A stretch of 35,162 bases of DNA from a virus (lineage: Duplodnaviria > Heunggongvirae > Uroviricota > Caudoviricetes): positions 1 to 35,162 of IMG/VR virus record IMGVR_UViG_2859810971_000008; one strand, 5' to 3'. Below the pieces are notes generated by a model. The model was not told where the DNA came from. It worked only from the letters and a program-made list of their open reading frames with translations, and did not search any database. Of this stretch, positions 9,913 to 11,643 are shown piece after piece. The first letter of the stretch is position 1, and every line of letters begins with the position of its first letter. The position numbers and the translations under genes were made by a program.

Positions 9913-9936
9913 CAAAAAACCCGCCGGGTGGCGGGT
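9913..9936 (-). terminator. Rho-independent terminator after the moron gene
   Basis: Minus-strand ACCCGCC-ACCC-GGCGGGT hairpin followed by TTTTTTGCTTT, 18 nt after the stop of the 79-aa gene. Confidence 0.6.
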
Positions 9937-9953
9937 TCATTATTGAAGTTTCA

Positions 9954-10193
9954 TTACTGCTTGTTTGCTTCTAACGCTTCAGCTATTCGGCGAAGATACT
10001 CATTGTTTTTAAATGAAACCATGATGCACTCAAAGAATATTCGGCAAAATACAGCACATAACAAAAGCACTAAAGCGCCAGCAGCCTTCCCATTAACAAA
10101 CGTTATAATGGCGGCAACAACCAGAAGTAACATTGTGATGCCATACAGAACGTTGATGATTTTTGGAGTTATTAATTTATCAAATCCGAACAT
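9954..10193 (-). CDS. Small membrane protein (moron), two predicted TM helices, unknown function
   Basis: 79 aa; hydrophobic stretches ITMLLLVVAAIITFV and ALVLLLCAVFCRIFF; lower G+C than flanking baseplate genes; own promoter-like and terminator elements. Confidence 0.5.
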   Translation of the reverse strand: MFGFDKLITPKIINVLYGITMLLLVVAAIITFVNGKAAGALVLLLCAVFCRIFFECIMVSFKNNEYLRRIAEALEANKQ

Positions 10194-10246
10194 GCGACAA
10201 ATTCCTTATCGTGAAAGTAGAAGTATCACATTATAATTACGAGTGA
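10194..10246 (-). promoter_or_regulatory. Candidate sigma70 promoter for the 79-aa moron gene
   Basis: Minus strand reads TTGTTG - 17 nt - ATAATG a short distance upstream of the ATG at 10193. By eye only. Confidence 0.3.
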
Positions 10247-10579
10247 TTAATCAACAATCTTTTTGCATGGAAAGGAACCGATGATTTTCGGCGCATCCAT
10301 GCTGTTCTGCAGCAGTTGGACATTCAGGAAAGCTTTTCCGTTACGTTTCACAAACTCAAAGCCGTAATTGTTACCATCACGGGAAGGCATCAGGCCCATG
10401 TTCATTTTTATGTTTGAATAGTCACCATCTTTTCCCAGAAATTTTATCTTCTGTGATGTGACAGTTTCACCGTTAATAACAGTCATTCCGTCACCGGTCA
10501 TCGTGTAGTTGCCGCACTGAATTGCAGCCATCGCCGGAGCAGTAACCATCATAACTAACGCCAAACATAACCGTTTCAT
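10247..10579 (-). CDS. Small secreted protein (signal peptide, two Cys), unknown function; moron
   Basis: The ORF track gives a 136 aa frame; the likely start is MKRLCLALVMMVTAPAMAA (ATG at 10577-10579, overlapping the TAA stop of the upstream gene), giving about 111 aa with a classic Sec signal peptide; low G+C. Confidence 0.5.
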   Translation of the reverse strand: MKRLCLALVMMVTAPAMAAIQCGNYTMTGDGMTVINGETVTSQKIKFLGKDGDYSNIKMNMGLMPSRDGNNYGFEFVKRNGKAFLNVQLLQNSMDAPKIIGSFPCKKIVD

Positions 10580-11643
10580 TAAAGCCCTCTTTCCCTCGCT
10601 GATGAGGAAACAAGATCCGCCGCGCCACGCGCTTCGCACATCATATCCATGTACCACGCCTGGCCCCTTGTATCGCCAGTGTACATAATCCCGCGCACAA
10701 TATAAACGCCATCCGTTGCGATGCTGGCAGGTTGTGCTGTGGTGCCGCTGAGTGTGATATTTCCGTCCGTGTTCTGGTCGGTGATCTGCCCACCAGCCAT
10801 CGCAATATCATTGTTCGACAGCGCGGTGCGGTACACGGAAGCCTGATCCAGCTGAATGAGCCCGTTAACCCGGATGTTCGGATTAATAAGCGCGCGGACG
10901 TTTACGCCGTTACCGATAGTCTGCTGCGGCATGCCAATAAGCCCGGTAGCGCTGTTGAGCACAATCGCTTCGTGAACATATTCATTATTCGCCACCATCT
11001 GGCGTTGACCATCCACGAATTGCCATGTTGCGCCACATTGCCCGGCTACATTATCCATAAGATGCCGCGTCATGCCAAAGAGTACCCGCCCCCGGGGGAA
11101 TACAGTAGCAGGCATTTCAGGCGTCAGGCCTTCGGTCGCACCTTTGGCTTCGAAGTCTTTCATCAGCGCACGGTTCACATCAGCGACCGTGTAACCGGCA
11201 GCCAGCGTCTGTGAGGTTATACTGGTGGCAAAAGCCAGATCTGTATCGGCTGCCTGAATCAGGACGTAGGAATCAACCGGGCTGTCTTTTCCTGTGACCG
11301 AGTAGCGAATTTCACCGCTGAAAATCAGTCCGTAGTTGCGGCCATCACTCTGGCCCACGTCCGCCGCATCAACCTCCCGCACGGTCCCGACATCGCTTGC
11401 CGACACCTCCGGCGCGATACCGTCGTAACCCGCAATCAGACGCACTTTCGAAAACTCCTGCCCGGTAATTCGGTTCACAGTATCTGCCGAGAGGTTATAA
11501 ATTTTGATAGTCCCTACCCGGGACGCGCTGCTGATGTTGAACCAGTCGATCGTAAAGGTGACTTTGAAATCACTTAGCTCAATTCCCTGACCGTTCCCGT
11601 CCACAAGCTGCAGCTCGAAATGTCTCATCCAGTTCTGTGTCAT
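10579..11643 (-). CDS. Baseplate hub / tail protein (P2 gpD or Mu gp44-like)
   Basis: 354 aa ORF in the tape measure-to-baseplate segment of a contractile-tail operon. Assignment by size and position only. Confidence 0.5.
   Translation of the reverse strand: MTQNWMRHFELQLVDGNGQGIELSDFKVTFTIDWFNISSASRVGTIKIYNLSADTVNRITGQEFSKVRLIAGYDGIAPEVSASDVGTVREVDAADVGQSDGRNYGLIFSGEIRYSVTGKDSPVDSYVLIQAADTDLAFATSITSQTLAAGYTVADVNRALMKDFEAKGATEGLTPEMPATVFPRGRVLFGMTRHLMDNVAGQCGATWQFVDGQRQMVANNEYVHEAIVLNSATGLIGMPQQTIGNGVNVRALINPNIRVNGLIQLDQASVYRTALSNNDIAMAGGQITDQNTDGNITLSGTTAQPASIATDGVYIVRGIMYTGDTRGQAWYMDMMCEARGAADLVSSSARERGL

Follow-up and report, generated by a model that had tools for sequence, protein, structure and literature searches.

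Why should a contractile-tail phage carry, between its baseplate hub gene and its spike gene, two small genes for proteins of the cell envelope, and do the two belong together? The question is raised by a stretch of 35,162 nucleotides (nt) of Caudoviricetes DNA (IMG/VR record IMGVR_UViG_2859810971_000008, positions 1 to 35,162; the whole stretch is called the window below), in the hub–spike part of which the minus strand is the coding strand of all genes. The hub gene is followed by a gene for a small protein with a predicted signal peptide, which we call SEC, then by a gene for a membrane protein of the family DUF4282, and then by the spike gene. An earlier note on this DNA had interpreted the pair as a single moron of two genes inserted inside the baseplate operon. 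Both genes lie where that note saw them, and their guanine-plus-cytosine (G+C) content (0.429 in SEC and 0.375 in the DUF4282 gene) is indeed lower than that of their neighbours (0.546 in the hub, 0.497 in the spike, and 0.540 in the tape measure gene). Related loci separate them: we consider it probable that the region is composed of two independent elements and not of one two-gene moron, namely a conserved gene for an exported protein (SEC) and a mobile moron of a single gene (DUF4282).

Morons are defined by their presence or absence between relatives, a deviant G+C content, and a promoter and terminator of their own (PMC3594210). The two genes were followed in 80 IMG/VR loci having a hub at least 97% identical to that of the window, and in GenBank and RefSeq relatives. 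Hub, SEC, DUF4282, and spike were mapped in each locus, and 83 loci (the window included) possess both hub and spike. A SEC homologue begins 3–9 nt after the hub in 79 of these 83 loci. In the other four its position is occupied by a 180-aa (amino acid) protein with a signal peptide (three loci) or by a 241-aa lipoprotein (one locus), and the position after the hub is predicted to code for an exported protein in 83 of 83 loci. The replacements (loci L056, L079, L085, and L082) are unrelated to SEC and start at the hub stop codon too.

The same arrangement extends far beyond these close relatives. A scan of the Enterobacterales with a SEC profile, one genome per species, gave 42 SEC loci, which span Citrobacter, Pantoea, Raoultella, Yersinia, Photorhabdus, Serratia, Rahnella, Rouxiella, and other genera. 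A hub homologue, with identity as low as 48%, directly precedes SEC in 39 of the 42, and in the remaining three the locus has no hub, or the hub is found 585–1951 nt upstream of SEC. These data show SEC to be ancestral in this tail module and passed on by vertical descent. Syntenic homologues in related tail operons were named in the earlier note as the finding that would speak against a moron, and they are what both surveys revealed for SEC; the gene is not absent from close relatives and was not inserted into the operon in the way that had been supposed.

The sequence of SEC agrees with this position. Its true start is the ATG at 10579 and not the GTG at 10657, to which the earlier note had extended the region, so that the exported protein described there as about 111 aa long has 110 aa, while its signal peptide and the two cysteines of its mature part were recognised correctly. 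The ATG, in front of which stands AGAGGG, shares bases with the hub stop codon (TAATG), an arrangement which indicates that SEC is translationally coupled to the hub gene; because of the same overlap there is no space for a promoter of its own. With no intergenic space to the hub, SEC does not form an independent transcription unit, and its sole moron-like trait is the deviant G+C content, which suggests that the gene was foreign in origin once. The N-terminus (MKRLCLALVMMVTAPAMA/AIQC, the slash marking the predicted cleavage) shows the n-region, the hydrophobic core, and the AxA pattern typical of Sec signal peptides, with a hydropathy peak of 2.2 across residues 4–18, and from these features SEC is predicted to be exported via the Sec pathway. 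Of its cysteines, at residues 5, 22, and 105, the first lies in the signal peptide and the two others in the predicted mature protein, which, judging from their conservation, is probably disulfide-bonded in the periplasm. SEC matches phrog_3443 (E = 1.2e-52, 107 of 110 residues); its 99% identical relative WP_040063285 is named “STY1065/STY2022 family phage-derived protein” by PGAP, and its AlphaFold2 model is beta-rich (confidence score pLDDT 78.7).

These features are kept in the family. C22 and C105 are invariant in the alignment of homologues, and the signal peptide varies in sequence while its character is preserved; only a few copies, truncated or degraded, depart from the signal-peptide character and the two cysteines. 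In two remote homologues, which are fusions of the lipoprotein type, lipoboxes are present instead. An exhaustive search of 1.8 billion proteins with the SEC profile yielded only 63 cluster representatives, all of them small exported proteins or lipoprotein fusions and none annotated.

SEC is under purifying selection, the ratio of nonsynonymous to synonymous substitution rates (dN/dS) being about 0.12 (0.19 in the N-terminal and 0.07 in the C-terminal part). Positive selection was looked for by this ratio and purifying selection was found instead, in a crude test with saturated synonymous sites which leaves selection at single sites possible. Since the synonymous sites are saturated, the SEC alleles must be old. 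The SEC proteins of near-identical E. coli phages differ by a mean pairwise distance of 0.274, versus 0.026–0.098 for the surrounding structural proteins, and the comparison of loci shows old, diverged SEC alleles which are shuffled by recombination.

Could SEC be a component of the virion or of tail assembly, whose hydrophobic N-terminus is not a cleaved signal and serves as a membrane-insertion helix at infection? Its deep conservation between hub and spike and its coupling to the hub, as in a structural gene, would fit this explanation. We regard it as highly improbable: the n-region, hydrophobic core, and AxA pattern are canonical and their sequence varies freely while the character stays, lipoboxes occur in the two distant homologues, the two invariant cysteines are those expected of a periplasmic disulfide, and unrelated exported proteins or lipoproteins replace SEC in four loci. 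In addition, the SEC alleles diverge about 3–10 times more than the neighbouring structural proteins, and no homologue was found among solved structures, which include many phage baseplates. An exported protein inherited with the tail module therefore remains our reading of SEC.

The second gene behaves quite differently. Its product has two hydrophobic stretches and an AlphaFold2 model in the form of a helical hairpin (H10-33, H37-78; pLDDT 87.5), in agreement with the two transmembrane helices noticed before, and it matches PF14110 (DUF4282) over residues 2–71 (E = 1.2e-10; 42.2 bits against a cut-off of 27) and phrog_12129 (E = 8e-48). The gene possesses an AAGGA ribosome-binding site and an A/T-rich upstream spacer of 53 nt, and its G+C content (0.388 at the third codon position) is the lowest in the region, as in a moron. 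That the open reading frames (ORFs) of SEC and DUF4282 are real genes follows from their PHROG matches, their numbers of database homologues (410 and 87, respectively), and the dN/dS of SEC. A plus-strand ORF of 102 aa (9928–10236) was rejected as a gene; it is a shadow of the DUF4282 gene and always accompanies it.

The promoter-like sequence that had been attributed to the second gene is present as TTGTTG (10257–10252), a 16-nt spacer, and a perfect TATAAT (10235–10230). This 28-mer was found in 12 of the fetched loci, without a single difference and in every case within a DUF4282 cassette, and from its resemblance to known promoters it is a plausible promoter of the DUF4282 gene.

The borders of the cassette can be read from identity profiles. 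In comparison with L001 and L026, which have the same SEC allele and another cargo or none, identity collapses at about 10270 and returns at about 9940. These borders give a cassette of about 330 bp, which contains the last SEC codons, the promoter-like site, the ORF, and a trailer of about 13 nt. In comparison with L006, which has the same cassette and another SEC allele, identity is 100% from about 10345 to about 9800 and drops to about 50% over the last codons of the hub and the 5′ two-thirds of SEC. As judged from these profiles, the cassette moves by homologous recombination between the conserved SEC 3′ half and the terminator or the 5′ end of the spike gene, and the 5′ part of SEC appears as a second, independent mosaic segment.

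The DUF4282 gene is present in 12 of the 83 related loci, and this patchy presence is what one expects of a moron. Among 5426 complete E. coli genomes, the hub was found in 306 (about 6%) and the DUF4282 gene in 84 of those 306, always with at least 99% nucleotide identity, which fits the recent spread of one cassette among diverse backbones. Syntenic homologues are thus confined to a minority of the related operons, and for this gene, in contrast to SEC, the proposal of an inserted moron stands: by distribution, composition, and sequence borders it is a genuine moron consisting of a single gene.

It is in this light that the two-gene moron has to be weighed, i.e., SEC and DUF4282 acquired together and acting together as an envelope exclusion module expressed in the lysogen. 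The genes are adjacent, both are low in G+C, both products are predicted to be targeted to the envelope, and diverged prophages of Erwinia and Pectobacterium likewise have DUF4282 behind SEC; the pair also recalls Sp and Imm of phage T4, a periplasmic protein paired with a two-helix membrane protein. However, SEC is nearly universal in the lineage while DUF4282 is rare, the identical cassette adjoins two SEC alleles that share only 55% identity, Klebsiella and Pantoea prophages have DUF4282 but no SEC, and SEC is coupled to the hub with no room for a promoter. Gene distribution has already largely refuted this reading, to which we give very little chance; what survives of the earlier proposal is one moron gene next to a resident one.

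Two independent elements are also what the surroundings of the cassette suggest, as DUF4282 is only one of many occupants of its site. Between SEC and the spike, no fewer than 20 cargo architectures were counted, besides one site without cargo, and the hub-to-spike distance ranges over the 83 loci from 397 to 1862 nt. The commonest cargo, in 38 loci (37 of them after SEC), is a protein of about 243–276 aa followed by a HEPN-like protein of 127–153 aa. DUF4282 comes next (12 loci), then a 192-aa protein with a YafO-family toxin (8 loci; Pfam E = 4e-17), proteins with two transmembrane helices and a weak PycTM-like match (5 loci), a secreted OB-fold protein (4 loci), a DUF2335 membrane protein (3 loci), and a zinc-ribbon gene in reverse orientation (3 loci). 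The empty site, in the single locus L026, consists of SEC, 24 nt, the terminator, and the spike. In the Enterobacterales, SEC directly abuts the spike, with no cargo, at five loci with a hub about 53–56% identical and at one partial locus without a detectable hub.

The pair of the about 250-aa and HEPN-like proteins (e.g., L009 at 5500–6770, L013, L041, and L012) exists in several diverged versions and its HEPN-like match is weak; PADLOC and Pfam gave it no assignment, and we consider it a candidate for an undescribed defence pair. The 192-aa protein with the YafO-family toxin (e.g., L008, L024, L055, and L075) is probably a toxin–antitoxin or abortive-infection module. Most of the slot cargo has no match to known defence systems.

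A strong terminator does follow the gene pair, as had been stated: a stem of 9 pairs (6 of them G–C), a 4-nt loop, and a T run, with a folding energy of −16.4 kcal/mol. Nearly the same sequence stands about 22 nt before the spike ATG in almost all loci, whatever their cargo, and at the empty site of L026 as well. Since it is kept regardless of the cargo and even where there is none, the terminator belongs to the phage backbone and not to the cassette; the DUF4282 moron is followed by a strong terminator which the backbone supplies. The data show a hypervariable slot for cargo, with the conserved 3′ half of SEC on one side and the backbone terminator on the other, and no description of a slot between hub/SEC and spike was found in the searchable literature.

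Similar sites are known elsewhere. Phage P2 has accessory and defence hotspots (Rousset et al. 2022, as cited in PMC10884400). Like such temperate-phage hotspots, the SEC–spike slot has a fixed position between conserved structural genes, many alternative cargoes, and conserved flanks. It differs from those of P2 in phage lineage and in position, being located between hub/SEC and spike; in P2, orf30 is located just upstream of gene V.

The phage backbone to which SEC and the slot belong can be identified with confidence. The hub–spike region is 84–96% identical to that of Escherichia phages vB_EcoM-689R2, 606R2, 611R5, and 683R1, Yersinia phage YP3, and Salmonella phage SEN34, with Klebsiella phages such as GZ7 as more distant relatives. 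SEN34 (genus Brunovirus), a temperate myovirus, has early and regulatory genes that resemble those of lambda (PMC5261728), and the comparison shows the window to be a SEN34-like (Brunovirus-type) temperate myovirus prophage of E. coli with lambda-type regulation. An E. coli prophage with a SEC–DUF4282 region 99.9% identical to the window is integrated at tRNA-Arg beside intS, and an antitermination protein (presumably of the Q type), holin, endolysin, and terminase are annotated upstream of the same long operon. Because of this upstream antitermination protein and of lambda biology, an intrinsic terminator inside the tail operon would be expected to be read through in lytic growth.

What the two proteins do is suggested mainly by comparison with known systems. 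HK97 gp15 is an inner-membrane exclusion protein, encoded inside the tail operon, which blocks genome entry (PMC3594210). Both HK97 gene 15 and the DUF4282 gene are single small inner-membrane genes in a tail operon near tape measure or tail-tip genes, and they share the sequence-level traits of deviant G+C content, promoter or promoter-like and terminator elements, and absence from close relatives. They differ in that no sequence similarity was detected between them, the exclusion phenotype is demonstrated for gp15 only, and the terminator behind DUF4282 comes from the backbone. HK97 gene 15 is reportedly the moron treated by Juhala and co-workers in 2000 and by Cumby and co-workers in 2012.

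A second comparison is offered by T4, in which Imm is a small two-helix membrane protein and Sp (Spackle) a periplasmic one of about 90 residues, i.e., similar in location and size to DUF4282 and SEC, respectively. Spackle is helical, T4 is virulent, and imm and sp lie outside the tail operon. No homology links the two pairs, the SEC model is beta-rich, and SEC and DUF4282 are not linked as a unit.

On these grounds we propose a scheme in which the two genes serve different phases of the phage life. In lytic growth, antiterminated late transcription would read through the terminator, and SEC would be produced along with the baseplate proteins. In the lysogen, DUF4282 alone would be expressed, from the cassette promoter, and the terminator would keep this transcript out of the spike and wedge genes. 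DUF4282 would insert into the inner membrane with both ends in the cytoplasm. An exclusion role of either protein would be plausible. Because DUF4282 is a small inner-membrane protein from a moron inside a tail operon, it can be likened to HK97 gp15, and we tentatively suppose, without giving this idea better than even chances, that it interferes with genome entry of incoming phages, as gp15 and T4 Imm do. For SEC, which would be made with the baseplate proteins and exported, the simplest guess, though a somewhat more doubtful one, is protection of the envelope: late in infection it would work from the periplasm and guard the infected cell or its debris against attack by further tails, as T4 Spackle or T5 Llp do.

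Further settings of DUF4282 homologues (58–70% identical) bear on its function. In diverged SEN34-like prophages of Erwinia and Pectobacterium the homologue occupies the same slot, after SEC. In siphovirus-type prophages of Klebsiella it directly follows the tape measure gene without SEC, and in a lambdoid prophage of Pantoea it follows the lysis cassette (holin, lysozyme, and Rz), again without SEC. An A/T-rich promoter-like region upstream and a terminator just downstream accompany the Klebsiella and Pantoea homologues, and an A/T-rich stretch upstream and a terminator are found at the Erwinia locus as well. In the Klebsiella loci (L092–L095 and L149–L150), the homologue lies at 6001–6243 or 5001–5243, at the junction of the tape measure and distal tail genes, and the terminator behind it (AAACCCGC-loop-GCGGGTTTTTT) closely resembles that before the SEN34-type spike gene. 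The conserved sites of the protein are F4, I8, T9, P10, and I12 at the N-terminus, R51, F53, F54, and E55 at the inner end of helix 2, and FKNNEYLRRI in the C-terminal helix, with no conservation in the periplasmic loop of the predicted topology, which implies that the protein probably works at the inner leaflet or the cytoplasmic face of the membrane.

The Pantoea setting raises an alternative to exclusion, in which DUF4282 acts on the membrane as an effector, either as a toxin or pore in abortive infection or by changing the time of holin-dependent lysis. Besides the place of the homologue directly behind the lysis genes, this is supported by the toxin-like cargo of the slot in other loci (the YafO-family toxin and the weak PycTM-like and HEPN-like matches) and by the small size, the two transmembrane helices, and R51 and E55, charged residues conserved in helix 2 or beside it. 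We nevertheless consider it unlikely, as the cassette has no gene for a partner antitoxin or sensor, no PADLOC or holin family is matched, and homologues are stably kept in chromosomal contexts without phage genes nearby.

Several observations weigh against our scheme of two independent elements with roles in exclusion. Neither protein matches a known exclusion or defence model in Pfam, PADLOC, or NCBIfam. A test for co-variation of SEC revealed no partner beyond the adjacent hub (rank correlations of 0.11–0.25 with other proteins, and of 0.11–0.24 with tape measure and spike, versus 0.56 with the hub). The consensus scan missed the promoter-like site of the cassette, because its weak −35 hexamer matches in just 3 of 6 positions, and promoter-like and terminator-like sites are no commoner in the region than in shuffled sequence. 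Finally, DUF4282 homologues 62–67% identical were met at two chromosomal sites whose flanks, as far as read, contain no phage genes, and for this reason a role in host physiology is equally conceivable.

Such a role would make DUF4282 a small regulatory membrane protein, which modulates an inner-membrane transporter or sensor of the host and acts as a fitness factor with no direct anti-phage function. In addition to the phage-free chromosomal homologues, one can cite the conserved cytoplasmic or inner-leaflet surface, as in a small protein which binds a partner, and a sub-threshold similarity to the E. coli inner-membrane protein YbhQ. Against it are the recurrence of DUF4282 in the tail-tip part of two unrelated tail operons, the slot it shares with toxin-like cargo, and the lack of a known partner; we believe this explanation to be improbable, to the same degree as the effector. 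Interference with phage entry thus remains the function that we tentatively assign to DUF4282.

The homology and structure predictions that the earlier note had recommended for both proteins were carried out, and they established family membership without a sequence, fold, or defence-system match of assigned function. DUF4282 (PF14110), PHROG 12129, PHROG 3443, and the PGAP “STY1065/STY2022 family” are families in name only, of which the window proteins are clear members by profile score. Searches with SEC and DUF4282 against PADLOC v2 and NCBIfam (release 20) gave no match to either, and in Pfam there was no match to any superinfection-immunity family, DUF4282 being the sole family matched. 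Among solved structures, searched by sequence, there was nothing for SEC and only chance-level matches for DUF4282, and a fold search with the SEC model gave no informative structural neighbour. Neither SEC nor DUF4282 showed homology to a characterised member of the known superinfection-exclusion families (T4 Imm, Sp, P22 SieA, HK97 gp15, and Cor/Llp), and SEC has no lipobox; nor was the characteristic fold or motif of the periplasmic lysozyme or transglycosylase inhibitors Ivy and MliC/PliC found. A literature search on DUF4282, STY1065/STY2022, PHROG 3443/12129, and the RefSeq accessions returned nothing on either gene. The prophage defence systems Tai (PMC11364771) and Tab (PMC10884400) were considered as matches and rejected, being other genes at other positions.

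A bolder idea, which we rate as rather improbable, is that SEC represents a class of late phage proteins that has escaped recognition, namely disulfide-bonded periplasmic factors which pass down with a contractile-tail baseplate module across the Enterobacterales, and that the slot behind it is an undescribed hotspot of defence genes. If this were true, SEC would act on the envelope in infection, e.g., by neutralising a peptidoglycan hydrolase borne by the tape measure protein or the tail tip of a secondary phage, the old SEC alleles would set the specificity, and the slot would carry new defence genes, including the DUF4282 membrane protein and the pair of about 250-aa and HEPN-like proteins. 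With respect to the hydrolase, the tape measure proteins near-identical to that of the window are named lytic transglycosylase by PGAP, and an Erwinia relative has Pfam SLT. The window tape measure protein itself gave only a weak PhageMin_Tail match in Pfam, and a peptidoglycan-hydrolase domain was not confirmed there.

Current ideas are not overturned by these results, which represent ordinary phage mosaicism with two uncharacterised families. Their significance is that a plausible two-gene moron resolves into a lineage-conserved exported gene and a true single-gene moron, and that a recombination-driven cargo slot is mapped in a common enterobacterial prophage family, whose hub occurs in about 6% of complete E. 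coli genomes. With its many architectures, the slot is a practical place to seek new prophage-encoded defence or conversion genes. SEC itself poses a small puzzle, namely for what reason a module for a contractile tail should invariably include an exported protein translated together with its hub.

The features of the region are summarised in the table, in which the tail genes were assigned by Pfam and PHROG matches and by the PGAP and Pfam names of the equivalent genes in related loci.

Table. Features of the hub–spike region and its neighbours in the window, in the order of transcription.
Feature	Coordinates	Strand	Remarks
Tape measure gene	12535-14544	minus	first listed
Dit-like baseplate protein gene	11948-12535	minus	followed by plug gene
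Pam3-gp18-type plug gene	11646-11948	minus	5′ of hub
Baseplate hub gene, 354 aa	10579-11643	minus	phrog_196 “baseplate hub”, E = 7e-89; weaker Pfam E217_GP41; upstream anchor
SEC, gene of exported 110-aa protein	10247-10579	minus	phrog_3443; PGAP “STY1065/STY2022 family phage-derived protein”
SEC signal-peptide coding part, residues 1-19	10523-10579	minus	predicted cleavage AMA/AIQC, read from sequence
DUF4282 cassette, approximate extent	9941-10270		identity profiles against L001, L026
Promoter-like site of DUF4282 gene	10230-10257	minus	TTGTTG, 16-nt spacer, TATAAT
DUF4282 gene, 79 aa, two transmembrane helices	9954-10193	minus	PF14110; PHROG 12129; predicted inner-membrane
Intrinsic terminator (stem 9938-9917 and T run)	9907-9938	minus	scan; about 22 nt upstream of spike ATG
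Spike gene	9143-9894	minus	downstream anchor; N-terminal domain Pfam PF18352, E = 2e-43; Apex motif in downstream frame
Sheath-initiator-like wedge gene	8790-9143	minus	3′ of spike gene
gpJ-like gene	7606-8790	minus	3′ of wedge gene
Wedge-1 gene	6915-7595	minus	last listed

Some other observations concern the state of the prophage. A 1-nt deletion at about 9371–9374 splits the window spike gene into ORFs of 188 and 73 aa, while in the relatives L009, L038, and L042 the intact spike is a single protein of 250 aa; the deletion is either a sequencing error or an inactivating mutation. A transposase pair of the IS3 family (HTH_Tnp_1 and rve) lies within the prophage at 28958–30162 on the minus strand. 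Together with the broken spike, it suggests that the window prophage is defective, with SEC and DUF4282 intact. An Rfam scan gave a sub-threshold match to COG3860 RNA inside the hub gene (10725–10795, minus strand; 18.8 bits against a gathering cut-off of 42.5, E = 0.16), which is almost certainly due to chance. Two Acyl_transf_3 genes, similar to those of O-antigen acetyltransferases (1515–2690 and 4456–5481), are located on the plus strand, opposite to the tail operon, between the integrase (1–1158) and the tail-fibre genes, and probably represent lysogenic-conversion morons.

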